Below are positions 42,852 to 55,195 of a stretch of 64,000 nt of DNA, piece after piece. Under the pieces are notes generated by a model that was not told the DNA's origin, did no database searches, and saw only the letters and a list, made by a program, of their open reading frames with translations. A program made the position numbers and the translations under genes. The stretch covers positions 2,176,001-2,240,000 of the forward strand of contig OY970296.1 of NCBI GenBank assembly GCA_963716175.1. Direction: 5' to 3'. Numbering within the stretch: the stretch's first letter is position 1; the number at the start of each line of letters is the position of its first letter. The DNA comes from an uncultured Armatimonadetes bacterium. GTDB taxonomy: Bacteria > Armatimonadota > Hebobacteria > Hebobacterales > Hebobacteraceae.

Positions 42852-42925
42852 GGCCCCGTCGTCTAGCGGCCTAGGATGCATGGTTCTCAGCCATGAGATC
42901 GCGGGTTCGAATCCCGCCGGGGCTA
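42852..42925 (+). tRNA. tRNA-Glu(CTC)
   Basis: GGCCCCG/CGGGGCT acceptor stem, CATGG-ttCTCag-CCATG anticodon arm, GGTTCGAATCC; no encoded CCA. Confidence 0.92.
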
Positions 42926-44586
42926 TTGCCACCCTTGATTTTCTGCTCGGCCATTTGCAGTACGGCCTCCAGGTACCCTCGCAGCACCAGCACCGCCCCA
43001 GGTCGCTTCCGCCCCGGCCGCTCCTCCCCGTGAACCTCGATCTTCCCCACCAATCGCTTCAGCGCGCCCTTCACCTGGTCGACCTGGCCGGCCGCCAGCA
43101 TCCGCGGTAGGTCTGACACCATCCGCCGCACCGTTCCTGGCAGCACGCTCAGCGCGGCTGGCAGGTCGGCGCCTTCCGCTGCAGTGGTCTGCTGGCGCAG
43201 ATAATCGCGTCTCGCCTCCGCGGCCCGCATCTCCTCTTCCAGGTCCTCTACCAGAAGGCCCTTCGCTATCGCCTTCACGAGTTGCTGGATCTCCCCCTCG
43301 ACTCGGGCAAGCTCATCTCGAAGCGCCGTTAGCGATGTCTCGTGTTGGACCTGAGCCGCGCGTGCTTGCTTCCACCGCTGCTGCACCTGCTGAACTAACC
43401 TGTCAAGGAAACCGTCAGTGCAGAACAGATCCTCCAGCTCGTGCAGGATCGCGTGCTCTGCCGCGGCCGCATCCACGGTGACCATGCAGTCGCAGACCAC
43501 CTCGCCCCGGTTCTGCCGAGTGCTGCAGGAGTAGGTGTTCGCCCCGCGCAGCACATAGGTGCCGCCGCACTTGCCGCAGATCAGCAGACCACTCAACAGA
43601 CGCCGATTGCGCCAGTGTGCCGCTGACCGTGACCCCCCTCGCGACCGCTCTTGCTGCCGGGCCTTGGCCGCCTCCCACAGCTCCTGGGGCACGATGCGCA
43701 ACTCCGGCGCCTCCTGGACTACCCACTTCTCCTCGGGCAGGTCTCGCCGCACTTGCGTGGCATCTCGATCCGGGTCTCTCGGCCAGGTGCTGCGGTTCCA
43801 GATCAGCCGACCGACGTACTTCTGGTTGTTGAGGATGCCCAGGCCGTGTTTCGGATTACCGAAGATGGCTCCATGCGACCACGTGCGCCGCACCCCTTGG
43901 CGGTCTCGCCATCTGGCGCCGGGCGGCACTACCCCCTCCGCGTTCAGCAGCGCAGCAATCCGGCGCGTGCTCATCCCGTCAGCATACATGCGGAAGATCC
44001 GCCGGATCACCTCGGCCTCGCCCTCGTGGATGACATAGGCGTGCCCGATCTCCAGGCCGGTCCCGGGTGGGTCGCCAGGTTTGTCTGCGTGCACCGGCCT
44101 CGTGCGATAGCCGTAGGGCGCTCCCCCCGCGTGAAGCCCCGCCAGCACTCTCCCCGCGAGGCCCCGGCGACTGCGGTGGGCGTTCGCCTGGCCTTCGGCC
44201 TCGTTCGTGTAGCTCTTCAGCGCGATGATGGCTTTGGCAGCCTCCGGAGACATGACGGAGTCCATTCCGTCCAGCACCGCGACCAGGCCGATATCCCAGA
44301 ATCGGAGTCGCTCGGTGAGAGAGACCAACTCCGAGGATCGCCGCGCCAATCGGGAGAGCTCATCGACGACGATCACGTCGAACTCGCGTGTCTTCGCAGC
44401 CTTGAGCAGCCGCTGATAGCCGGGGCGTCCCTGGGAGACCATCCCCGGGATCTCGCTGTCCGAGTGGACAGCCACCTCCTGCCAGCCCCGGCGCGCGATC
44501 TCCGCGCGGCACTGGCGCACTTGGTCCTCAATCGAGGACGGCCGCTGGAGGTCGCTGCTATACCTTGCGTAGATTGCCGCTCGCAT
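42871..44586 (-). CDS. large serine recombinase (integrase)
   Basis: AAIYARYSS catalytic Ser, DELSRLAR, PYGY recombinase domain, LLSGLLICGKCG zinc ribbon, coiled coil; the 3' end overlaps tRNA-Glu. Confidence 0.95.
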   Translation of the reverse strand: MRAAIYARYSSDLQRPSSIEDQVRQCRAEIARRGWQEVAVHSDSEIPGMVSQGRPGYQRLLKAAKTREFDVIVVDELSRLARRSSELVSLTERLRFWDIGLVAVLDGMDSVMSPEAAKAIIALKSYTNEAEGQANAHRSRRGLAGRVLAGLHAGGAPYGYRTRPVHADKPGDPPGTGLEIGHAYVIHEGEAEVIRRIFRMYADGMSTRRIAALLNAEGVVPPGARWRDRQGVRRTWSHGAIFGNPKHGLGILNNQKYVGRLIWNRSTWPRDPDRDATQVRRDLPEEKWVVQEAPELRIVPQELWEAAKARQQERSRGGSRSAAHWRNRRLLSGLLICGKCGGTYVLRGANTYSCSTRQNRGEVVCDCMVTVDAAAAEHAILHELEDLFCTDGFLDRLVQQVQQRWKQARAAQVQHETSLTALRDELARVEGEIQQLVKAIAKGLLVEDLEEEMRAAEARRDYLRQQTTAAEGADLPAALSVLPGTVRRMVSDLPRMLAAGQVDQVKGALKRLVGKIEVHGEERPGRKRPGAVLVLRGYLEAVLQMAEQKIKGGNSPGGIRTRDLMAENHAS

Positions 44587-44797
44587 CGTCATCTTCGTTT
44601 GGCTCGGCCGCCGCCTGGCTCAGCAACATGGCCACCACCGCCTCCGCTATGTCCTGGACCAATTGATCCATAACGTCCGCGGGAAGTCCAGCGAGAACCT
44701 CCTCGGGTGGGCGCCTATTCGTGCTGATGTTGCGCGCTTTCACTGGTCTTCCCAAAGGAAAACGCCGAGGAGGCTGCTCCCCGGCGCCTTTCGCCAT
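44558..44797 (-). CDS. small hypothetical protein overlapping the integrase start
   Basis: Helical C-part MDQLVQDIAEAVVAMLL; position typical of small integrase-linked genes; start uncertain. Confidence 0.4.
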   Translation of the reverse strand: MAKGAGEQPPRRFPLGRPVKARNISTNRRPPEEVLAGLPADVMDQLVQDIAEAVVAMLLSQAAAEPNEDDDASGNLRKV

Positions 44798-44898
44798 CAC
44801 ACATTGGTGGCCGCAGGCCGCCCGCGTCATCGCATCATCTCAGGGCTTGCGCTCTGGGCTCACTCCCGCTGAGCGCGTTCCACTGACTGTTTCCTCCG

Positions 44899-45186
44899 TC
44901 ACTCTCGCCTGCTCAGGCCGCCTCGCCCCGCTTTCGCCATTCGTGCCCGCTTCATGTTCTTCACCAACCATCTTCTGGCGGCGGCGTCGATCGTGCCCTT
45001 GACCCCCAGCAGCAGGTGCTCGTCATTCCCGAAGTGGTAATCCATCTCGGGGGTCACGATCATCTGCACCCCGCCCTCCTCGAGCGCGTCGTAGATCTCG
45101 TAGAAGGCGCCTTCCTTCCTGGCGAGTCTGTTTGTGTCGAGCAAATCGCGCACCGCGTCTGCTTCTCGTCGCTTATTTCCCCACAC
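44899..45186 (-). pseudogene. fragment of a second serine-recombinase catalytic domain
   Basis: DTNRLAR...LEEGGV.IVTP..DY...LLLGVKG...KRARMAKA.RG resembles the DRLSR-to-E-helix segment; no YxRxS motif. Confidence 0.55.
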
Positions 45187-45257
45187 TTTCTGGCCCCGGC
45201 CGGTCGGGTGTGCGGGGACCTGCCGACCGGGGCCGAATCTGATCTGGCGCGCCTGGT

Positions 45258-46112
45258 CTAGACCTCGCCTACGGCCTTCGCCAACTCAGACCGAGTGAGC
45301 GTGGTGGTGTAGATGCAACGGATTTCGGTGTTGTCCTCGGGCATTACCTCGCGCCAGAGTTCGCGGTCTCCCTGACTCACCAAGTCCGCCAGCGCGCTTG
45401 CAACGCCTTTGCGGGCCCACTTGCTGTGCCGTTCCTCTGCTGCCAGGAACCCGCCCTCAACCATATCATCGAGGAGCTCGTCCACATCGATATCCCGCAC
45501 CTCATCGAGTAGGGTTTTGCTGATTGACCTTCCTTCAGGGTCCATCCGCCCCGCCAGGATCGCCACCGCTTTGTCGAATGGAACCTTCTCGATTAGCTCC
45601 ACGAATCGAAACACATCACCCCCGGTCTTGCAGGCGGAGCAATACCAGAGGCCGGTCTCGGGGTCAACCTGGAACAGAGAGGGAATGTCCTGCGGACAGA
45701 AGGGGCAGAGGCCGCTCAGGCGTCGCCCGGTCTTGCGCAGCTGGACGTGAGTCGAGATGAGGTCGACGATGTCCGTGCGTTCACGGATCGCCTCCAGGTC
45801 TCGAGCTGAACCGGGTCTGCGATCCGAATCGGCGTCGGTGCAGGGGCAGCTCGAGAGGTGGAGCACTGCCTCCCGCGATCCCACGGCCCGGCCGACTGCC
45901 GCGATAAGGCGCTCCACCCAGGCCTGCGCTGTCTCGACTGTGAGAATGGCCGTGGCGAGCCCACCCCCTTCTATCTCCATCACGACATACACGCCGGCGG
46001 CCTGGTCTGGCGCTCGTGTGTCTCCCGGCCATGGTGAGGCGGGGTCGGCCAGGGGTATGGCCGTCATCCTGATCTCTTCCGTGCGCTCATAGTCCTTCTG
46101 GAACCACGCCAT
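45258..46112 (-). CDS. protein containing a DnaG-type CHC2 zinc finger, no TOPRIM
   Basis: IRERTDIVDLI...LCPFC...WYCSAC..GGDVFRFV...F..AV..LA; AAGGAG RBS. Confidence 0.8.
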   Translation of the reverse strand: MAWFQKDYERTEEIRMTAIPLADPASPWPGDTRAPDQAAGVYVVMEIEGGGLATAILTVETAQAWVERLIAAVGRAVGSREAVLHLSSCPCTDADSDRRPGSARDLEAIRERTDIVDLISTHVQLRKTGRRLSGLCPFCPQDIPSLFQVDPETGLWYCSACKTGGDVFRFVELIEKVPFDKAVAILAGRMDPEGRSISKTLLDEVRDIDVDELLDDMVEGGFLAAEERHSKWARKGVASALADLVSQGDRELWREVMPEDNTEIRCIYTTTLTRSELAKAVGEV

Positions 46113-46113
46113 G

Positions 46114-46401
46114 CTATCGCTCCTTCCCGTAGGGTCGGGGCCGGCAGCCCCGCCGTATGCTCTCCGTTGACCGTTCCCTCCGCCACTCTCGCCTGCTGAG
46201 GCCGCCTCGCTCGGCCTTCACCGGCGATTCGCGACGACGCCGCGCTCGGTTTAGGGCCAGCTGCAGCGTAGGGCCGGGCAGATACCCATTGGTGTGCAAG
46301 TATTCACCCACATAGTTGATGTCATCGTCGGCACACGACCGACCATAGACACCCAGGTTGAGGTCTGATGCCTTACCGCGAACCACGCGTGGTTCGTACA
46401 C
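46114..46401 (-). CDS. hypothetical protein
   Basis: GGGAG before GTG; ends 1 nt before the next ATG. Confidence 0.4.
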   Translation of the reverse strand: MYEPRVVRGKASDLNLGVYGRSCADDDINYVGEYLHTNGYLPGPTLQLALNRARRRRESPVKAERGGLSRREWRRERSTESIRRGCRPRPYGKER

Positions 46402-46537
46402 TGATATTGCTCCCGTCGTGCCTCACGAGGAGGCCGCGTCTGCAGATTGACCGCTCCGCGACAAGGCCGGTTATGAGAAGCGAAGGTCCTTCGTATTGGC
46501 GGCGCCCAGACTACGCTCATCGCCTCTGCCTTCGGGC

Positions 46538-46708
46538 CTATCCCTCGTCGGCCCACCTCTCGCGCTGTAGCCGGTTCACTTCGGTTGCCGGGATCGCGCG
46601 CTGCCGTCCGATCCGCACGAATCGGACTCGACCCGACGCCGACCACCGTCTGATCGTTGCCGGGTGCACACAGAGTCGTTCGGCCGCCTGTTTCGTAGAA
46701 AGCAGCAT
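46538..46708 (-). CDS. excisionase-like MerR/HTH_17 DNA-binding protein
   Basis: MLLSTKQAAERLCVHPATIRRW...G....RIG.QR.I. Confidence 0.8.
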   Translation of the reverse strand: MLLSTKQAAERLCVHPATIRRWSASGRVRFVRIGRQRAIPATEVNRLQRERWADEG

Positions 46709-46854
46709 CCTACGCCCTTTCTCGGTGCTTGCGTGTAACCGTGCACTGGTTATAGAATTGGGGCGCAAAGCGCGTGTGCGCTTGCGCGCATCAGACATCG
46801 GTCAAGTACCTCGGCGGCAGCGGCGTACCAGTGCCAGATTTCATAAGCACGAAA

Positions 46855-47793
46855 ATGACACCCCTTCCCGCAGCAAGGAAGCCTGACGCGTATCGTAAGG
46901 TGCGGCAGAGCTATGAACGCAGGTACGGTGTGCGCTTCAGCGACGAGCAGTGGCTTGTAGTCGTCGACGAAGCGATGTCCATGTCGGGCCCGTCCACCAG
47001 ATCAGACGCTTATCTGCTACGCCTTCACCAGACGGCTGATTCGTACGCGAAGTTCCTGAGCCTCGGGACCCGCAAAGCGAAGGGCCGTCGCAAGCGGAAA
47101 ACCGTGAAAGGGAAGAAGCGAGGCCCGTATGCTCGACCGCTGCTCGAACGCATCGACTTGGTGCTGCACGTGAACGGGTGCAGGAGTATGGCCAGGCAAC
47201 TGGGGATTCGATGGCTCTGGCGGGACTTCGCAGAGGCACACTGGAAACAGACAGGTAAAGAGGAGAGCCCCGGCGTGCTGAGACGTCGCCACCAATCTGC
47301 GAAGAAGCGGCTCTACACCGCCGTGCCTGTCAACCTACGCTGGCTGCTATGGCCCGAGCACAGGGCCGAGTTGCTGAGACTCCTGGGCGTGCGCAACCTC
47401 AAGGCCTTGGCTGAAGAGCAGGAGAGGCCGACCGAGTGGGTGCGTGGACTTGAGGCGCGGCTTGCTGCGGACCAGGCCCATGTGAAATCAGTTCCTGCTG
47501 CGCGGCGCGAGCGTACCCGTACCCTACTCGAGAAACAGCACGCGCGGGCCATTGCTTTCACCAAGGCCCAGGGTCTCAAGCCCTACCATCTGCCAACTGC
47601 GTGGGAGCCGAAACTCAAGGCTCAGCACGACGCCGACCTTGTTTACCTGAGATCCCTGCCGCCCGTCGACCCCAAGCAGAGGAAGGCAGACCGCCAGGCT
47701 CGGACTGCCAGAGCCGCTGCCGCCCGCAAGCGCTTGAAGAAGCAGCTGTGCGAAGAAGACCTCGCCTATCTGAGATCCATCTCTCGAGAGTAG
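46855..47793 (+). CDS. basic hypothetical protein, divergent from the Xis-like gene
   Basis: 312-aa open frame, K/R-rich, repeated DL(V/A)YLRS motif. Confidence 0.55.
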   Translation: MTPLPAARKPDAYRKVRQSYERRYGVRFSDEQWLVVVDEAMSMSGPSTRSDAYLLRLHQTADSYAKFLSLGTRKAKGRRKRKTVKGKKRGPYARPLLERIDLVLHVNGCRSMARQLGIRWLWRDFAEAHWKQTGKEESPGVLRRRHQSAKKRLYTAVPVNLRWLLWPEHRAELLRLLGVRNLKALAEEQERPTEWVRGLEARLAADQAHVKSVPAARRERTRTLLEKQHARAIAFTKAQGLKPYHLPTAWEPKLKAQHDADLVYLRSLPPVDPKQRKADRQARTARAAAARKRLKKQLCEEDLAYLRSISRE

Positions 47794-48117
47794 ATCGCCC
47801 TACGGCGCAGGGTCTACTTGGCCGAGCGAGCCACCTCCCGATTGCGCCCGCCCGGCTGGCTGGAAGTCTTGCCGAACCCCGTGGATCACCCTTCCATCTT
47901 CCTCCCGAATGGCCGCGCGAGCACCAAGCTCTCGTTCTGCTGTACCATCAGCGGTTCGATAGCCACCACACCTTGCACAAGCCAGCGGGCGGTGGATCAG
48001 TTTGACGAGGAGGCCACCGCGTGGTAATCTTCCGCTGGCGAGGGGGGATGGCTAAGGTGGGGTGTCTAGGGGTGAACAGAGATACCCACGCCTCTCGACA
48101 AGCTCACCGTCGGTCAT

Positions 48118-48552
48118 GTGGGGCAGTTCATCGCAGCCGAGAAGACTGCTGACCTCGCTTCTGCGATCCGTCGGGGACGCGGAGGCAGGTGGTGTCCACG
48201 CGTTCCGATACTTGGCGCGAGAGTTGCTCAGTACCGCGCGGAGTTACTCCTTGTTCTTGATCCCGGCGATGTCTGCGAGAGTTCATGCAGGATTGTGTTC
48301 GCGGGAACTATAGAACGTGTTCGGGCTGTGAATTGGAAGGAAAGCTATCCCAGTGCTCTTGACCCCTCGGTATTCTGCTCCGGCTGGCATGAGCATAGGT
48401 GGGACCCGGTCAATCGCGACCGGAATCATTATCCCGTTCCCGATCTCCAGGAGCCCAGGTCTTTCCGTGAGGTTTTGCAGTGGGCACAACTACAATGGGG
48501 CCTCGAGATCAGCGGGTTATACTTGATACCCCAGTCACTTATGAAAGGCTGA
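48118..48552 (+). CDS. hypothetical protein (DUF6978-like partner of DUF1828)
   Basis: LT..V.QFIAAEK near the N-terminus, WHEHRW, stop 2 nt before the next ATG; true start probably slightly upstream. Confidence 0.5.
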   Translation: MGQFIAAEKTADLASAIRRGRGGRWCPRVPILGARVAQYRAELLLVLDPGDVCESSCRIVFAGTIERVRAVNWKESYPSALDPSVFCSGWHEHRWDPVNRDRNHYPVPDLQEPRSFREVLQWAQLQWGLEISGLYLIPQSLMKG

Positions 48553-48554
48553 AA

Positions 48555-49400
48555 ATGGATATCATGGAGGAAGCTAAGGGTCTGTGTGAGGACCTACGCA
48601 GAGTGTACGAGAATCGCGTGCGGGTTGTTGTCCGGCCAGACGGCAAGCACGTCGTGACCGTCCCTCACTCTACGCTGGAAGGAGGCGATACTTCGCTGTT
48701 TGTGGATGCCGTGGACGGCTTACTGTTCCTGCACGATAACGCGCGAACTGCTGTGTTCCTGGAATCTCTTGGTGTTGATCCGCGGGCCAGCGGCCGTAGA
48801 ACCCATATTGAGACCTTGGCCCGCGAGCGTGGTTGCGAATACAGAGTCGGACGGCTTCAAGTCCTCGTGCGAGCAACCAAGGATCGAGCTTCGTCTGCGG
48901 CGGGCCTTGCAGACCTGATCAAGACCGTGTCCGACCTAGGGCTCCAGTCCAGGCCCAAGCCGATTCAAGATCGGGCACTGGTGAGTCGAGTCAGGAAGAG
49001 GTTGTCCGAATGGTATCCTCCGACCACTCGGACTGCGGTGCATGCTCCTTATCGGGTACGTGGAGAAGTGGCGGAGCATACAGTGGAGTTCGCTGTCGCA
49101 AGAGGTGGGCGTTGGTGCGCCGTGAAGCCCGTTCAGGGCAGACAAATGGTAATGCAGGCCGCGAGCTGGCTGGGTACATGGCGGGATATCTGGTTAGGGC
49201 GCTCATCTGAGGCGAACGGAAATGGCCTCGTGGGAGCTGTCAGTATCTATCCGACCGCGGATGTGTCAACGACAGAAGTTGATGTCGTTAAAGACATCTT
49301 AGGAAGGTTTGGCAGCGAACACATTCCTGTTGCGGAGGAAAGCTCGCAGGGCGTACACGATGCCATTGAATCGGTGCTGCGGGTCGGCATGCTACAGTGA
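48555..49400 (+). CDS. DUF1828-like protein with a restriction-fold-like C-terminal region
   Basis: VTVP....GGD..LFV....G...LHDNART...L...GVD; C-terminal VRGEVAEHTVEFAV. Confidence 0.6.
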   Translation: MDIMEEAKGLCEDLRRVYENRVRVVVRPDGKHVVTVPHSTLEGGDTSLFVDAVDGLLFLHDNARTAVFLESLGVDPRASGRRTHIETLARERGCEYRVGRLQVLVRATKDRASSAAGLADLIKTVSDLGLQSRPKPIQDRALVSRVRKRLSEWYPPTTRTAVHAPYRVRGEVAEHTVEFAVARGGRWCAVKPVQGRQMVMQAASWLGTWRDIWLGRSSEANGNGLVGAVSIYPTADVSTTEVDVVKDILGRFGSEHIPVAEESSQGVHDAIESVLRVGMLQ

Positions 49401-49439
49401 ATGCTGGACGGCCGATGGTGTCTGTGGTATCGTACTGTT

Positions 49440-49694
49440 ATGCCTAAACGCTCAAGCAAGCACAAGCAGGGACCTGAGGACGTGAACGAGATCGCCTTCC
49501 GGGTGACGCAGAGGGCGGCGGGGGAAGCACCGCAGGAAGCGTCAAGTGGGAAGAACCCCGCGGCAGTCGCACTCGGCAAGCTCGGCGGCGCGAAGGGCGG
49601 CAAGGCGCGGGCCGCTAGACTCAGTGCGGATCAAAGGAGAAGTATTGCAGTGAGAGCCGCGCGCATTCGCTGGGGAGAGTCTCGTGAAGCCTAA
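49440..49694 (+). CDS. small basic protein (KNPAAVALG...KGG family)
   Basis: MPKRSS...DVNEIA...KNPAAVALGKLGGAKGGKARA..LS...R..IA..AA..RW. Confidence 0.75.
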   Translation: MPKRSSKHKQGPEDVNEIAFRVTQRAAGEAPQEASSGKNPAAVALGKLGGAKGGKARAARLSADQRRSIAVRAARIRWGESREA

Positions 49695-49905
49695 CCCTGC
49701 GACTGCTTGATTGCAGCCAACTTGTCCTTGTCTATAAGGTTGTTTGCTTTTCCTTGCATGATAATGTAAGGCTGCATGAGCGGGTTCATGAACCGAAATC
49801 TGTAGCGGTAAGCGGTCCCGGTCTTTTGTAACACAGGTCCTCTCTCACTCCCGCAGAAGTCATTCAGGTGGCGCGAGAAGCTGGCAATTCCATAGCTTTT
49901 CGCCA
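49691..49905 (-). pseudogene. C-terminal remnant of a larger protein, probably an AAA-ATPase wHTH tail
   Basis: FSRHLNDFC..ERGPVL..TG...YRFRF.NPLMQPYIIM; low GC, no N-terminal part. Confidence 0.4.
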
Positions 49906-50020
49906 TGACAGTACTTGACCTTGCTTCCCAGGCGATTCGCCCGTACACTTGGCGCGATCTTGCTCCCGCCTGTGTATCTTGAGGTAGTCATTCCAGGCCA
50001 AAGCGATAACGACTACGGCG

Positions 50021-50836
50021 ATGATGCACATACTGACCACGAAGGCGGCAACCGTTATGTCAATGACTCGACCATCAAGCTTGTCGCCCATTGATACTGC
50101 GGCAAGGGCGCAGACCGTCTGGTTTGTCGTGGAGACTGTCCTTCTCCTGGCGACAGTCGTGGTGTCCGTGTTGGTGTGGCGGTCCACCAACCGATACCAG
50201 GATCTTGTGAGGCGCGAGGCTGATGCCCGGATTGCAGAAGCTACCCTTGGAGCGGCCCAAGCGAACGAAAGGGCCAAGGCCCTAGAGGCCAGCAACCTCA
50301 TCCTGCGCAAGGACGTGAATGAGGCAAGCGCCAAAGTCGCCAGCGCCCAACGGGACGCCGCAGATGCGCAGAAAGCTGCTGCCGAAGCAATAACACGCCA
50401 GCAGAGGGTCGAGATCTTGCTGGCCAGACAGCAGGAGCGCGCAGCAAGAGCAGAAGCGGAACTGGCGAAACTACAGCCTCGCTTCCTCTCTAGTAGGCAG
50501 CGCGGCCTCTTGCTAGAGGCCTTGACGGCCTCCCGCAAAGGCCCGGTAGAAGTCTTCTGCCTCGTCAATGATGCCGACGGGGAGCAGTACGCAACACAGA
50601 TCAAGGAGGCGCTACTAACATCCGGATGGCCGACCGCTGGCGTCACTATGGCGAGGCTGATACCCGGACCGCCTCCAGGTCTCTCCATCGCCGTACGTGA
50701 CAGGGCGTCTCTGCCGCCCCACGCCCAGAGTCTGCTGCACGCGTTGGCCACCGCAGGACTTCGTACGAACTTGGACGAGGAGCCTGATGTACCCGCAGGA
50801 GTGGTTAGAGTGATCGTTGGCCACAAGCCGCAATGA
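50021..50836 (+). CDS. membrane-anchored coiled-coil hypothetical protein
   Basis: One TM helix, long Ala/Glu/Arg coiled coil, globular C-domain starting LQPRFLS; start uncertain. Confidence 0.6.
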   Translation: MMHILTTKAATVMSMTRPSSLSPIDTAARAQTVWFVVETVLLLATVVVSVLVWRSTNRYQDLVRREADARIAEATLGAAQANERAKALEASNLILRKDVNEASAKVASAQRDAADAQKAAAEAITRQQRVEILLARQQERAARAEAELAKLQPRFLSSRQRGLLLEALTASRKGPVEVFCLVNDADGEQYATQIKEALLTSGWPTAGVTMARLIPGPPPGLSIAVRDRASLPPHAQSLLHALATAGLRTNLDEEPDVPAGVVRVIVGHKPQ

Positions 50837-50900
50837 GCGCGTGTCTCTATTCTCAGCGCCTTCCCCCTCATCTTAGGACACCACCAGCCAGCGAGGGGCC

Positions 50901-50928
50901 TTTACGGCCGCGCGTTTCGTGGTATACT
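50901..50928 (+). promoter_or_regulatory. putative promoter of the ParB-MTase-terminase operon
   Basis: TTTACG-16 nt-(TG)gTATACT extended -10. Confidence 0.5.
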
Positions 50929-50943
50929 CTGAGCGGACAGTAA

Positions 50944-51045
50944 GGCCCCTGGCCCTGGTGGGTTTGGGGTGAAGAGCTGGCGGATATCAGCCGGCGTCTG
51001 ATGCGAGATAGGAAGGGACGCCTTCCAAATCTGGCACCAGGGGCC
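50944..51045 (+). ncRNA. candidate structured 5' leader RNA
   Basis: Nested stems GGCCCCTGG/CCAGGGGCC, GGTTTGG/CCAAATC, GCTG/CAGC, GGCGTC/GACGCC. Confidence 0.4.
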
Positions 51046-51075
51046 GGCTTCGTCTTTCTGCCAGGAGATATCGAA

Positions 51076-51708
51076 ATGGACCAGTCGCCAGGACGCGCAA
51101 CGACCGAGACCGCCAGAGAAGTGGAAGTCGTCTATGCCTCCGGCATTCCTGTGCATTGCGCGCATGATCAGATCGCCGATGTCGATGTACTCGTCCCCAA
51201 TCCGCGCAACCCCAACCGTCACTCGGACGAACAGATTCGCCTGCTGGCGAAGATCATCAAGCACCAAGGCTGGCGGGCCCCAATCACGGTCTCGAACCGC
51301 TCCGGCTTCATCGTCCGCGGCCACGGGCGCCTGACAGCGGCCAAGCTGCTGGGTGTTGACCTCGTGCCCGTGGACCGCCAGGACTACGCCACCGAAGCGG
51401 AGGAGTGGGCCGATCTCATCGCCGATAACCGACTCTCGGAGCTCAACGAGATGGACGGCGCCAGCCTCACGGAGTTGCTCCGGGAACTCGATGCCGGGAT
51501 GCTGGCGGTCCTGGGCGCGGACATGGAGTTGACCGGCTTCACGGAGGCCGCTCTGGCTGAGGTGATGAGCCAGCTCCAGCCGGAGGAGGAGCTGGAGGAG
51601 GTGGAGGCCCCGGAGCCGCCTGCCCAGCCGGTAACGCGGCCGGGCGATCTCTGGCTGCTGGGTCGGGTCGTGCAGTGTCCTCGTTGCGGGAGGCTGACTG
51701 ATGTCTGA
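51076..51708 (+). CDS. ParB/Srx-like N-terminal domain protein ending in GDLWLLG + CxxC
   Basis: LVPNPRNPNRH, GWRAPI, GHGRL.AA, IADNR, LTGF, acidic linker; AGGAG RBS. Confidence 0.88.
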   Translation: MDQSPGRATTETAREVEVVYASGIPVHCAHDQIADVDVLVPNPRNPNRHSDEQIRLLAKIIKHQGWRAPITVSNRSGFIVRGHGRLTAAKLLGVDLVPVDRQDYATEAEEWADLIADNRLSELNEMDGASLTELLRELDAGMLAVLGADMELTGFTEAALAEVMSQLQPEEELEEVEAPEPPAQPVTRPGDLWLLGRVVQCPRCGRLTDV

Positions 51709-52453
51709 ATGCGTCTGTCAGCACTGCCGACATCGATTCGAAGCGGAGCCGAAGGTGAAGCATCGCGTCCTCTGCGGCGATGCCACCAGTGACGCGGATC
51801 TCGCGACGCTGACTTCCGGCGAAGCCTGTCAGTTGCTGACGACAGATCCGCCATACAACGTGGGCATGGACTACCGCGAGGAGACGGACGATGACAAGAG
51901 CGGGGAGTCCTATCGGGAGTTCACACAGCAGTGGTTTGAGGCGACGCGTGCCCTCACCGAAAGGCAGATCGTGACCCCCGGCTGCAACAACCTGGCGATG
52001 TGGCTCCGGCTCTACGGCCCCTACCACGTGGCGCCGTGGACGAAGACCAACGCCATGACCAACGGCAAGGTCTCCCGTTTCTGGTGCTGGGAGCCGATCC
52101 TGTTCTTCGGGGAGAAGTGGCCACGAACACGGCCCAACGACGTTTTCGACTTCCCGGCTGGCACCCACAAAGATACCGGAGGGCATCCCTGCCCCAAGCC
52201 TCTGAGGATGTGGGCCGATCTGCTGACCCACTATGCAGCTGAGGGGGGAACCGTCCTGGAGCCATTCCTGGGCAGCGGCACGACCTTGGTAGCGGCCGAG
52301 CAGGTGGGCCGGAGGTGCATGGGCCTGGACATCTCGCCGGCCTATGTGGATGTCGCACTGATACGCTGGATGAAGCTCACCACCAAGCAGCCGATCCTTG
52401 CGGCCACCGGCCAGACCTTCGAGGAGGTGCACGATGAGCGAAGCAGTTCCTGA
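51701..52453 (+). CDS. beta-class N6A/N4C DNA methyltransferase 1
   Basis: HRVLCGD, TDPPY, HPCPKP, EPFLGSGTT; own GGAGG RBS. Confidence 0.9.
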   Translation: MSECVCQHCRHRFEAEPKVKHRVLCGDATSDADLATLTSGEACQLLTTDPPYNVGMDYREETDDDKSGESYREFTQQWFEATRALTERQIVTPGCNNLAMWLRLYGPYHVAPWTKTNAMTNGKVSRFWCWEPILFFGEKWPRTRPNDVFDFPAGTHKDTGGHPCPKPLRMWADLLTHYAAEGGTVLEPFLGSGTTLVAAEQVGRRCMGLDISPAYVDVALIRWMKLTTKQPILAATGQTFEEVHDERSSS

Positions 52454-53312
52454 GCCGGCAGGCCGGGATGGCGGCCCGCAGGGCCCAGCCATTGCGTGCA
52501 CCTGCGCCCACTGTGGCAAGCGGTTCGAGGCCGTCCCGATGCCACAGCATCGCATCATGTGCGGAGACTCCACCGATCCGGCCGCGGTCGCGGCGCTGAT
52601 GGCGGGCCAGCAGGCGAGGCTGCTTGCCAGCGACCCGCCCTATGGCGTGCGCTATGACGGCAACGCGCACCGGCGGGAACACAGCGGGGGCAGAGTCTAC
52701 GATCCCATCGCCAACGACGATCTCGACGGACCTGCGCTGGAGGCATTCCTGACGGCCGCCTTCCGCGCGGCCTTGCCCCACCTCTCCGACGATGCCGCCT
52801 GGTATGTCTGGCACGCCTCCAGCACGCGTCCCCACTTCCTGGCGGCGCTAGCCTCTGTGGGGGTGGAAGTGCACCAGGAGATCGTCTGGGTCAAGGAGGG
52901 CTTCCAGTTCAGCCGCTCCGATTACCACTGGCAGCACGAACCCTGCCTGTATGGCTGGCGCGAGGGTCACGTCTTCCTGGGGGAGCGCAATCAGTCGACG
53001 GTGTGGCCGATCGCCCGGCAGAGCGAGCATAGGCATCCGACCTCAAAGCCGACGGAACTCTGGCGCATCCCGATCCGCAATCACTTGCCACCCGGCGAGA
53101 TCGTGCTGGATCTGTTCCTCGGCAGCGGAACCGCGATCATCGCCGCCGAGCAGTTGGAACGGCGCGGCTTCGCAATGGAGATCGGCGCCGCCTACGTGGA
53201 CGTGTCCGTGCTCCGCTGGCAGGCGCTGACTGGCAAGGAGGCCATCCTGGAGGCGACGGGGCAGAGCTTCTCCGAGGCGGCCGCGGCGCGGGGGGTGGAG
53301 ATCGAGTGCTGA
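52434..53312 (+). CDS. beta-class N6A/N4C DNA methyltransferase 2
   Basis: HRIMCGD, SDPPY, YHWQHEP, HPTSKP, DLFLGSGT; GAGGAGG RBS. Confidence 0.9.
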   Translation: MSEAVPEPAGRDGGPQGPAIACTCAHCGKRFEAVPMPQHRIMCGDSTDPAAVAALMAGQQARLLASDPPYGVRYDGNAHRREHSGGRVYDPIANDDLDGPALEAFLTAAFRAALPHLSDDAAWYVWHASSTRPHFLAALASVGVEVHQEIVWVKEGFQFSRSDYHWQHEPCLYGWREGHVFLGERNQSTVWPIARQSEHRHPTSKPTELWRIPIRNHLPPGEIVLDLFLGSGTAIIAAEQLERRGFAMEIGAAYVDVSVLRWQALTGKEAILEATGQSFSEAAAARGVEIEC

Positions 53313-53313
53313 C

Positions 53314-53748
53314 ATGGCCGATGAGGTTCAGGAACAACCGAAGAGCAACGTGGGCGGCATTACCGGCAAGGGGTTCACTCCCGGCCGCTCCGGCAACCCC
53401 GGGGGACGGCCTCGGGGCAGCAAGAGCCTGCGGAATCTGCTGATCGAGGCGCTGCGCAAGAAGGCCAAGGACGGCAAGGGCGGTGAGAAGGAGTTCTACG
53501 AGCTGCTCACCGAGTCCATCGTGGTGAACGCGGCCAAGGGCAATGCGGCCCTGGTGAAGCTCATCTTCGACTACCACGAGGGACCGCCGCCGCAGAAGCA
53601 TGAGCTGACCGAGTTCGTCTATCAGGCGACGGAGCTGCGTGAGACCGTCCGCAAGGTGGCGGAACTGATGCGGGACTTCGTCCCGCCGGAGCGATGGGAT
53701 GAGCTCGCCGCTCGTCTCGACGAGATCGACAGAGCCAGCGCCGCGTAG
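53314..53748 (+). CDS. putative terminase small subunit (DUF5681-type)
   Basis: GFTPGRSGNPGGRPRGS; A.KGN...KLIFDY.EG.P; directly upstream of terL. Confidence 0.75.
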   Translation: MADEVQEQPKSNVGGITGKGFTPGRSGNPGGRPRGSKSLRNLLIEALRKKAKDGKGGEKEFYELLTESIVVNAAKGNAALVKLIFDYHEGPPPQKHELTEFVYQATELRETVRKVAELMRDFVPPERWDELAARLDEIDRASAA

Positions 53749-55195
53749 CCTCCTGGGCGTGCTCGCCCGGGAGTTCAGGGCCCAGGCATCCGAGGCCTCC
53801 TTCGCACGCTACCGGGATGACCCGGCGCGGTTCGTACTGGACATCTTCGACTGGCGAGAGGGCGAGGGGCCGACGGCCTACCAGCGGGAGGCGCTGCGCG
53901 AGTTCCCGCGGCGGCGCCGAGTCTGCCTGCGGTCCCCACACTCAGCAGGCAAGACGGCCCTGGCGGCATGGATCGTGCTTTGGTTCGCGTTATCCAGGGA
54001 GCGCATGGAAGGCGATTGGAAGGCCGTGTTGACCGCCAGCGCATGGCGGCAACTATCGCACTACCTGATGCCCGAGATCCGCAAGTGGGTCGGACGCCTG
54101 GATTGGGCGAAGGTCGGCCGGCGGCCATTCGACCAGCGCACCGAACTGCTGGCACTCAACCTGAAGCTCTCCCGGGGTGAGGCCTTCGCGGTCGCCTCGG
54201 ACAAGCCGGAGCTGATCGAGGGGGCCCACGCCGACCGGCTGCTCTACATCTTCGATGAGGCCAAGGCCATCCCATCTGCCACCTGGGACGCGGCGGAAGG
54301 CGCGCTGGCGTCGGGCGACTGCCTCGCGCTGGCGATCTCTACGCCGAGCGAGCCGCAGGGGCGATTCTACGAGATTCAATCGCGGAAGCCGGGCACCGAG
54401 GATTGGTGGGTGCGCCACGTCACGCGGGACGAGTGTCTGGAGTCCGGGCGCATGGACCCGGAATGGGCGGAGCAAAGGAAGGTGCAATGGGGAGAGGGCT
54501 CGGCCGTCTACCAGAACCGCGTGCTGGGCGAGTTCGCGTCATTGGAGGAGGATGGTGTGATTCCCCTGGCGTGGGTCGAGGCGGCGAACGAGAAATGGCG
54601 GGCGCTGGAGGAATCGGGGGAGTGGGGAGGGTTCAGCTGCTGCGGGGTGGACGTGGCAAGAGGGGGTGAGGACCGGACGGTCATCGCCCTCCGGTACGGC
54701 GACGCCATCCGGGAGCTTCGGCGGTCCTCGAAGCGGGACACGATGGAGACCACGGGCGCGGTGGCGGGGATCCTCCAGGCACACGGGGGCGAGGCTATCG
54801 TGGACGTGATCGGGATCGGCGCCGGCGTGGTGGACCGGCTCAAGGAGCAGAGGAAGGCGGTGAGGGCATTCAACGCCTCCGAGCACACCGATGCGAAGGA
54901 CCGATCGGGCGAGCTGGGCTTCGTGAACAAGCGCAGCGCGGCCTGGTGGCACCTGCGGGAACTACTCGACCTGGCCTCCGACAGGCAGATCGCCCTTCCG
55001 CCAGACGACCTGCTGACCGGGGACCTGACGGCGCCGCATTGGCATCCCATGTCCGCGGGAAAGATCCAGGTCGAGGCCAAAGACGATATCAAGAAGCGCA
55101 TTGGCCGCTCCACCGACGACGGCGACGCGGTGGTGATGGCGTTCTGGAAAGAGCCAGCAGTAGTGTATCCGAAGTTCAGGATCGCGAGGGCGTGA
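53699..55195 (+). CDS. phage terminase large subunit
   Basis: SPHSAGKT Walker A, IFDEA Walker B, ISTP, RVLGEF, GVDVARGGED nuclease, STDDGDA. Confidence 0.9.
   Translation: MSSPLVSTRSTEPAPRSLLGVLAREFRAQASEASFARYRDDPARFVLDIFDWREGEGPTAYQREALREFPRRRRVCLRSPHSAGKTALAAWIVLWFALSRERMEGDWKAVLTASAWRQLSHYLMPEIRKWVGRLDWAKVGRRPFDQRTELLALNLKLSRGEAFAVASDKPELIEGAHADRLLYIFDEAKAIPSATWDAAEGALASGDCLALAISTPSEPQGRFYEIQSRKPGTEDWWVRHVTRDECLESGRMDPEWAEQRKVQWGEGSAVYQNRVLGEFASLEEDGVIPLAWVEAANEKWRALEESGEWGGFSCCGVDVARGGEDRTVIALRYGDAIRELRRSSKRDTMETTGAVAGILQAHGGEAIVDVIGIGAGVVDRLKEQRKAVRAFNASEHTDAKDRSGELGFVNKRSAAWWHLRELLDLASDRQIALPPDDLLTGDLTAPHWHPMSAGKIQVEAKDDIKKRIGRSTDDGDAVVMAFWKEPAVVYPKFRIARA

Follow-up and report, generated by a model that had tools for sequence, protein, structure and literature searches.

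How does a DNA-modifying enzyme that is commonly made as one polypeptide work when it is encoded in pieces, and when two different catalytic pieces lie behind a single partner? The question is raised by a locus in a 64,000 nucleotide (nt) stretch of DNA (the window; positions 2,176,001 to 2,240,000 of contig OY970296.1, assembly GCA_963716175.1) from an uncultured Armatimonadetes bacterium, in which a ParB-like protein and two DNA methyltransferases (MTases), called MTase1 and MTase2 here, are encoded by successive overlapping genes upstream of a terminase (Table 1). One report finds fused ParB-N6N4 MTases to be over-represented in phages and prophages (PMC12704722), and in another the MTases of ParB-terminase loci are predicted to modify the DNA of phages during packaging (PMC4738411). 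The answer favoured here, with moderate confidence, is that the locus encodes a naturally split ParB-MTase, which would be held together by a split zinc ribbon and whose catalytic subunits would be exchangeable. A preliminary description of this DNA had proposed such an arrangement, with a half zinc site on ParB and the complementary half on each methylase; the split, the joint occurrence of the half sites and, as a prediction, the docking of MTase1 have stood, whereas the metal site, the docking of MTase2 and the function are what we infer.

The reading frame of the ParB-like protein is open from 51001, and the ATG at 51076 agrees with the 210-211 amino acids (aa) of its homologues. It matches phrog_498, the family of the fused ParB-MTases, at 1.2e-45 and phrog_620 at 1.3e-33 in PHROGs, ParB/Spo0J chains of the PDB at E values of 1.5e-5 and 2.3e-5, and ParB_N (PF02195) at 22.4 bits, under the Pfam cut-off of 26.3. 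Across 80 sequences H83 and R85 of its motif RGHGRL, which we take to be a Box II-type G-x-x-R nucleotide-binding motif, never vary, and conservation of G82 and G84 is 90% or more. A ParB of the segregation type was ruled out: the protein has only 210 residues, with a few helices and a disordered tail after the N-domain, neither a helix-turn-helix (HTH) nor a C-terminal dimerisation domain was found by Pfam scan or in an AlphaFold2 (AF2) model, and no parA was found adjoining the gene. The locus does have the junction strands of the phrog_498 type, GDxWxLG and HRxxCGD, and the terminase neighbourhood, with the strands on separate polypeptides.

The junction of the fused enzymes had been described as cut at this locus, and on re-reading of coordinates and translations all that was said of the sequences on either side of the cut holds. 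The ParB-like protein ends VTRPGDLWLLGRVVQCPRCGRLTDV before its stop codon, laid out as GDLWLLG-RVVQ-CPRCG-RLTDV; MTase1 begins MSECVCQHCRHRFEAEPKVKHRVLCGD; and the knuckle region of MTase2 reads CTCAHCGKRFEAVPMPQHRIMCGD / ...IACTCAHCGKRFEAVPMPQHRIMCGD, behind a leader of 21 residues that is absent in most relatives and is missing from a contig of sequencing run X6 (joint 52440 to 52503). Both MTases have a CxxC knuckle ahead of HRxxCGD. ParB and MTase1 are separated at 51701-51708 by a stop codon, a start codon and a shift of frame, which are conserved in relatives. MTase1 starts 8 nt inside the ParB stop in a frame one base further on and is preceded by GGGAGG (51688-51693) with a 7-nt spacer; MTase2 in turn overlaps the MTase1 stop by 20 nt, with GAGGAGG upstream at 52421-52427, and each methylase does therefore have its own Shine-Dalgarno sequence and an overlap with the stop before it. 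Alignment bears out DPPY and FLGSG in both methylases (residues 49-52 and 189-193 of MTase1, motif IV before motif I, in the same order in MTase2) and the common N- and C-terminal modules around differing cores; PF01555 is matched at 81.7 bits by MTase1 and at 67.1 bits by MTase2 (cut-off 26.7). Of the motif CxCxxC on the methylase side, the CxxCG part is the conserved half site and the first cysteine is variable, being H, Y or R in L210, L218 and L207.

A break of this kind might be an artefact or a decay product, either an assembly frameshift or a pseudogenised fused gene; the ParB and MTase1 frames do differ by one base, and broken copies are found elsewhere (L098, L039, a frameshift in the first methylase, MT-A, of L286, and the garbled P0295). 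The distribution of the arrangement speaks otherwise. The strand and CPRC tail (GDxWxLG, four residues, CPRC, six residues) is present in 49 of the best 120 ParB relatives of similar length, which are 63-90% identical and include the ParB of the locus itself, and in 80 sequences chosen for a terminal knuckle both C201 and C204 are always present, with conservation of 90% or more at P202 and G205. All six of the closest IMG/VR loci carry ParB, MTase1 and MTase2 with all three knuckles, and the same cassette is found in G032, a genome of the same class and another family. Of 80 metagenome loci 18 have the tail: the 12 with enough downstream sequence all have two knuckle MTases, in four the sequence ends or is interrupted behind the first, L214 lacks any sequence downstream and in L211 a gene of MTase2 type directly follows ParB. 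Altogether 28 fetched records have the tail, corresponding to 21 distinct loci after removal of duplicates between collections, and the search for other genomes with the same split, which the preliminary description had suggested, thus returned these as well as the distant lineages discussed below, with two knuckle MTases recurrent. Within the phylum a match was obtained in 3 of 401 sampled genomes, that of the window included, and the tail was not found in 32 ParB loci of GTDB species genomes.

Across seven loci both TGT and TGC are used for ParB C201 and C204 and for MTase1 C6, a synonymous difference, and in seven the overlap sequence GATGTCTGA is invariant. A 496-nt contig of run X2 that is identical to the locus spans the junction (51622-52117), and no indel is listed at 51650-51720 in the Logan contigs of four sequencing runs; the fusing of the ParB and MTase1 frames, on which it had been said that the idea might founder, is not seen in these contigs. 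Run X2 may be the locus's own source, and it is therefore the independent assemblies that carry weight for a real split. An artefact also fails to account for the identical architecture in 18 distinct clade loci and in other lineages, for the conserved Shine-Dalgarno sequence and the start and stop overlap, or for the approximately 33 extra residues at the junction relative to fused forms, which are no mere 1-nt change. Because the architecture, the synonymous cysteine codons, the invariant overlap and the identical spanning contig together count against both assembly error and pseudogene decay, such an origin is very improbable, and as far as comparative sequence evidence goes the split is genuine and under selection.

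The split might still be undone in translation, by a programmed +1 frameshift at the overlap that would yield a fused ParB-MTase1 protein. The prfB site has a superficially similar layout, with a Shine-Dalgarno sequence upstream of the stop, and an 8-nt overlap with a strong Shine-Dalgarno sequence ahead of the stop is what is seen here. However, slippage would have to occur within three codons, since the frame of MTase1 is closed by a TGA two codons upstream of the ATG, GTC to TCT is no slippery pair, and no upstream ParB frame is available for MTase2; furthermore, the overlap in L348 is different and the halves in L370/L371 are parted by 0.7 kb and an opposite-strand gene. With that TGA and with junctions that differ between lineages, recoding is scarcely credible.

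What distinguishes the split enzymes from the fused ones is an insert. Among the relatives of MTase1 the majority are fused ParB-MTases, 370-445 aa long, that align from MTase1 residue 20 and read GDLWxLGxHRLxCGD. The closest fused relative of the ParB at this locus, P0271 (71% ParB identity), has the junction GDLWICGSHRVMCGD and no knuckle insert; the split locus is longer than this by approximately 33 residues, of which ParB carries RVVQCPRCGRLTDV and the MTase MSECVCQHCRHRFEAEPKVK. Read from its motifs, the junction insert is a pair of zinc knuckles placed at the hairpin turn with the gene boundary between them. A knuckle before HRxxCGD occurs in 8 of the best 150 MTase1 representatives, all eight of which are stand-alone proteins with the knuckle within the first 5-27 residues, and all six knuckle MTases of L285-L391 come after a stop codon. 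No knuckle was found at the junction of the best 120 longer ParB relatives, the sole long protein matching MTase1 residues 1-60 is fused and lacks the knuckle, and neither the 150 representatives nor the 120 longer relatives include a fused protein with both knuckles, a result that is weak as evidence. The half sites, as had been supposed, co-occur in the split loci inspected and are absent from the fused forms inspected.

Whether the two halves could still fit together was approached by structure prediction. In AF2 models of the single chains ParB is confident at residues 20-115 and its tail has pLDDT values of 53-64, with a hairpin (E198-200/E207-209) at CPRCG; MTase1 has a pLDDT of 88, with a hairpin (E2-5/E12-15, pLDDT about 75) at CQHC. 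For the complex ParB residues 166-210 (alignment A1), MTase1 (alignment A3) and one zinc ion were folded together, A3 being preferred to A2, in which fused forms are included and residues of the MTase1 N-terminus are spread across ParB columns. The three ipSAE values, 0.92, 0.93 and 0.92, compare with 0.35 for the highest control out of three; 94% or more of the contacts recur between runs, and pLDDT for the partner is at least 84. ParB residues 173-210 contact MTase1 residues 4-9, 11, 13 and 15-26, which form the knuckle hairpin and strand beta1, and residues 211-248. The pairs with the lowest error are ParB L191-G195 with MTase1 K20-C25 and I232-A234; of the MTase1 C-terminal residues 231-235 and 240 that lie within the predicted interface, 232-234 have their lowest error against ParB 192-194. 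In the model, then, the GDLWLLG strand of ParB is with high confidence sandwiched between beta1 of MTase1 and its conserved C-terminal strand, a placement that would explain why the methylases have their N- and C-terminal modules in common, and the hairpin of GDLWLLG and HRxxCGD that had been expected to be restored is predicted as a pairing of GDLWLLG with HRVLC. The two CxxC knuckle hairpins, on separate chains, are both inside the predicted interface. No solved ParB-MTase structure was found by a PDB sequence search. Completion of the ParB half site within its own chain by Cys28, His27 or His30 (VHCAHD) was considered and rejected, because Cys28 is not specific to the knuckle, being conserved irrespective of whether a ParB is fused, knuckle-tailed or of another kind.

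An important consideration is whether one ParB can serve more than one methylase. MTase1 and MTase2 are 32.5% identical overall, with identity at 35 of 64 interface positions (55%) and at 51 of 186 others (27%). A third methylase type, P0219 (306 aa), has a TSPPY core with a large insert together with a knuckle at the N-terminus and a C-terminal tail like those of MTase1, with which it is identical at 46 of the 64 interface positions versus 51 of the 186 elsewhere. These figures suggest a conserved docking surface on MTase2 and P0219 and are not decisive, because the interface set includes generally conserved motifs (FxGSG, HRxxCGD). In the L348/L286 lineage, too, two knuckle methylases follow one knuckle-tailed ParB. 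The earlier idea that either methylase can be mounted on one ParB is thus borne out in so far as the docking residues are kept and a gene of MTase2 type can come first, as in L211; the docking of MTase2 itself we infer. Contigs of run X1 join the C-terminal modules of MTase1 and MTase2 (52302-53190) and skip 856-887 nt, a hint of recombination between the shared modules or of one-methylase recombinants; at 80% likeness these contigs may derive from other organisms.

Searches from two distant knuckle methylases reached two or three independent, far more remote lineages with the same anatomy. The ParB of L348 is 38% identical to that of the locus, with the tail GDLWLLGAKVTCPNC... and the C-terminus GDLWLLGAKVTCPNCRKATPLERAIRK before the stop, and downstream of it lie two knuckle methylases and then terminases; L286 has a cassette of the same type. 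In L370/L371 the ParB can be aligned to that of the locus in the tail only (GNMYGLGAFTVCPKCG..., ending ...KWGVKTGNMYGLGAFTVCPKCGKIHDL before the stop) and MRCECGYEFEPEIKYRHYIICGD opens the knuckle methylase; in the fused relatives nearest to L370 the sequence is ...KWGVE(S/T)GQLWQLGEHRLICGD, and there is no knuckle insert in L367 or L372-L379. The 0.7 kb between the halves of L370/L371 holds an opposite-strand HNH open reading frame (ORF; L370 404-1111, minus strand; PF01844 28.5 bits), the 3' end of which in L370 overlaps the last ParB codons. In the window no ORF was found between ParB and MTase1, where the 8-nt overlap leaves no endonuclease gene in the break. P0052 (193 aa), with the variant tail ...GDIWQLGRWVYCKKC... 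and the C-terminus ...GDIWQLGRWVYCKKCRKKHYVE before the stop, is nested among fused forms of the Sporomusa type (...GDIWQLGRHRLMCGD) and is probably a further independent split lineage. P0295 (619 aa) was considered as a triple fusion and rejected as a garbled multi-frame gene call.

A quick maximum-likelihood tree was made of 116 MTase cores, with 14 split-knuckle rows. The split state changes 11 times on it, at least 10 of the changes being forced by well-supported branches (shuffled mean 13.4), and is therefore scattered among fused relatives; the tree is compatible both with repeated gain of the split and with an exchange of cores behind a junction that stayed conserved. Among cultured phages (INPHARED) the split form was not found, the best MTase1 match there being 35% identical; H25 is fused. 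No IMG/VR locus was found for the knuckle MTase P0173, and the query P0131 returned 79 distant loci without the knuckle. In Acidithiobacillus phage AcaML1 (L201, 16791-19606) two adjacent 'DNA modification methylase' genes, Gp24 and Gp25, stand in tandem.

A different view of the knuckles is that the subunits associate by strand insertion without any need for metal and that the knuckles are leftovers of a gene-splitting insertion that share no zinc. The HNH gene does lie in the break of L370/L371 and does overlap the ParB tail with its 3' end, the lowest-error contacts of the model are between strand and strand and not between knuckle and knuckle, the MTase1 knuckle has lost its glycine, and the first cysteine of CxCxxC varies. 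Leftovers would not be expected, however, to keep their cysteine pairs across lineages whose ParBs are 38% identical or cannot be aligned, nor to vary their cysteine codons synonymously, and zinc knuckles are usually recognised by CPxCG or CxxCG on short hairpins. That the knuckles are mere remnants is on this evidence quite unlikely.

A number of points weigh against the clasped, split enzyme that is preferred here. In calibration 58 of 80 solved complexes attained the mark used for the complex, as did 2 of 110 mismatched pairs, counts that hold only roughly for a prediction with alignments of its own and a zinc ion riding along. A high score indicates that the ancestral interface has been retained and not that the proteins bind in the cell; the halves of a split gene may score high because the model has learned the intramolecular packing from fused relatives. 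A Zn(Cys)4 site with ligands from two chains is deduced from the motifs, the complex prediction having returned no metal geometry. The proposed docking of MTase2 comes from conservation, only ParB and MTase1 having been folded. An intact fused ribbon of two knuckles was not found, and a stage at which both knuckles formed one domain is therefore conjectural; in MTase1 the knuckle glycine is replaced by R (CQHCRH, CQHCGH in relatives). The element that carries the cassette may be a remnant prophage or a satellite, as may the similar one in G032. Finally, the ParB knuckle need not pair with the product of the next gene, because there are ParBs with a knuckle whose neighbour, a C5-cytosine methylase, has none.

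These last proteins keep alive a rival in which the half sites are not complementary. A terminal CxxC is present in 87 of the best 120 ParB relatives, 50 with the GDxW strand and 37 without it. The lone-knuckle ParB-only proteins have 160-195 aa, a single CPxCGxEF knuckle and no GDxW strand, and the next gene, which overlaps, encodes a C5-cytosine methylase without CxxC in L022, L035, L050, L065, L077, L082 and L093; the C5-methylase of L080 has CGGFPC only, and in L044 a small terminase follows. By analogy with zinc hooks such a lone knuckle may bridge two ParB molecules, and it could be that ParB-ParB hooks, MTase-MTase dimers or some other role are all that the knuckles serve, the methylases not being held by ParB. 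Zn-mediated homodimers such as the Rad50 hook are known, and the present ParB family is without the C-terminal dimerisation domain that, in the account given of the ParB-5mYOX system, is needed there (PMC13229309). Homotypic pairing leaves unexplained, though, why the MTase knuckle occurs, among the proteins and loci inspected, in split forms only and always with a ParB tail that keeps GDLWxLG, and equally the high-confidence heteromeric model; it is an unlikely explanation, and one to be taken seriously.

If, as we prefer, the locus encodes a split ParB-MTase with a zinc clasp, it may work as follows. The cut falls at the turn of the beta-hairpin that joins the domains (GDLWxLG/HRxxCGD), within an inserted, putative zinc ribbon of approximately 33 residues. 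The ParB-like subunit is predicted to be made with a disordered C-terminal tail of GDLWLLG, four residues and CPRCG, and each methylase with an N-terminal CxxCG hairpin just before beta1 and a conserved C-terminal strand. The ParB strand would insert between beta1 and the C-terminal strand, the step predicted with high confidence, and the two knuckles would close round one Zn(II) with two cysteines from each chain. Since MTase1, MTase2 and the third type keep the docking surface on different cores, one ParB could load either methylase, or two if it dimerises, each methylase presumably with a target sequence of its own. To judge by its gene context, and as has been proposed for ParB-terminase loci, the complex may methylate the DNA of the element around packaging. 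The split probably arose by insertions at a permissive turn, at least one of which, in L370/L371, appears to have been that of a homing endonuclease; the window's lineage has no endonuclease gene left, its genes being translationally coupled.

The two-knuckle insert might even be a portable gene-splitting module. It would enter the hairpin turn of ParB-MTases, at least sometimes with a homing endonuclease, cut the gene and at the same stroke supply a zinc-dependent clasp, which would then be the standard plug by which methylase cores are swapped or stacked behind a ParB loader; this extension is doubtful.

The features referred to above are collected in Table 1. The cassette lies inside a 12-kb island (42871-55195) with a serine recombinase at one end and the terminase at the other. 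A 74-nt direct repeat of 78% identity (44865-44938 and 46149-46222) flanks its primase-like gene. Neither portal nor capsid genes were found after the terminase within the window, and convincing attachment-site repeats were not found around 42-57 kb. Four fused ParB-MTase genes with frames of 448-460 codons and the junction GELWxLGRHRxxCGD are present elsewhere in the same genome (G000:C1).

Table 1. Features of the split cassette, its island and flanks (window positions) and fused ParB-MTase genes of the same genome (G000:C1 positions)
Feature	Position	Strand	Basis or remark
ParB-like subunit, 210 aa	51076..51708	+	ORF, ParB/Srx N-terminal fold, profile matches
GDLWLLG codons, residues 189-195	51640..51660	+	strand preceding HRxxCGD in fused enzymes
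First zinc knuckle CPRCG (C201, C204), ParB C-terminus	51676..51690	+	sequence conservation
Gene junction: GGGAGG, MTase1 ATG 51701, ParB TGA 51706-51708	51688..51708	+	8-nt overlap
MTase1, beta-class N6/N4 DNA methyltransferase, 250 aa	51701..52453	+	PF01555
Second zinc knuckle C-V-CQHC-R, MTase1 N-terminus, conserved pair C6/C9	51710..51730	+	
HRVLCGD, strand beta1 of MTase1, predicted partner of ParB GDLWLLG	51761..51781	+	
MTase1 C-terminal module KQPILAATGQTF, predicted cover on the other side of the ParB strand	52385..52420	+	
MTase2, beta-class N6/N4 DNA methyltransferase, 292 aa	52434..53312	+	PF01555
MTase2 zinc knuckle CTCAHCG, residues 22-28	52497..52517	+	after 21-residue leader
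DUF5681 protein, small-terminase position	53314..53748	+	PF18932 47.6 bits
Large terminase subunit	53699..55195	+	phrog_2 7e-38; weak PF03237 match
Large serine recombinase	42871-44592	-	
CHC2 zinc-ribbon primase-like gene	45258-46112	-	
Aldo-keto reductase, non-phage flank	57012-58112		
NACHT/STAND protein, non-phage flank	from 60338		
Fused ParB-MTase genes, G000:C1	2845751-2847130, 2879226-2880569, 2963470-2964813	+	
Fused ParB-MTase gene, G000:C1	814434-815780	-	

Were the split enzyme to be confirmed, it would be a natural split zinc ribbon of approximately 15 residues per side that reassembles an enzyme, a new case of the rare zinc site made by two proteins, and possibly a small metal-dependent dimerisation tag. 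Phages would have made a ParB-methylase of fixed composition modular, its specificity subunits being exchangeable, which bears on restriction evasion, and if the insert were portable they would have gained a quick way to change their methylation pattern. The model offers a concrete and testable interface for trans-acting phage ParB activators, and the HNH gene a link between gene splitting by homing endonucleases and a structural solution for reassembly. No account of the arrangement was found in the literature, judged by title and abstract, as the preliminary description had supposed; the supplements of PMC12704722 and PMC13229309 may list unfused ParB neighbours. The elements are known, and it is their combination that was not found described, in which the gene breaks between the two knuckles of a zinc ribbon at the junction, in more than one lineage and with catalytic halves that can be exchanged.

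The nearest known systems, in so far as the sources describe them, each share a part of this. The fused ParB-N6/N4 MTases (phrog_498; PF02195+PF01555) have the same domains, junction strands, C-terminal tail and place upstream of the terminase, whereas here the polypeptides are separate, there is an extra pair of knuckles and there are two methylases for one ParB. A stand-alone phage ParB was reported in 2026 to activate an adjoining DNA dioxygenase in trans, with no stable complex detected (PMC13229309). In that system, 5mYOX176/ParB176, an HTH-less ParB fold acts in trans on an adjacently encoded DNA-modifying enzyme, as is predicted here, and the ParB C-terminus lies near the enzyme in a multimer model (PMC13229309); unlike the present case the enzyme is a 5-methylpyrimidine dioxygenase, its ParB has a C-terminal dimerisation domain and no knuckle, and where no stable complex was seen there, the interface here would be the remnant of a covalent junction. 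Insertions of homing endonucleases are described as splitting phage genes whose products reassemble (PMC2988022), and Aeh1 nrdA/mobE, T4 gene 39/60 with mobA and split gene 43 likewise turned one gene into two ORFs with reassembling products (PMC2988022). An HNH gene in the break makes L370/L371 resemble these; the break in the window differs in having no endonuclease gene, in lying at a possible clasp insert and in having several alternative downstream halves. Few intermolecular Zn(Cys)4 sites are known; those described as best studied are the Rad50 hook and the CD4/CD8alpha-Lck clasp, both of which place two cysteines per chain on one zinc, as we suppose for ParB and its methylases. The Rad50 hook, however, is the apex of a homodimeric coiled coil and the Lck clasp joins the tails of signalling proteins, whereas the present site would consist of ribbon-like hairpins combined with the insertion of a beta-strand.

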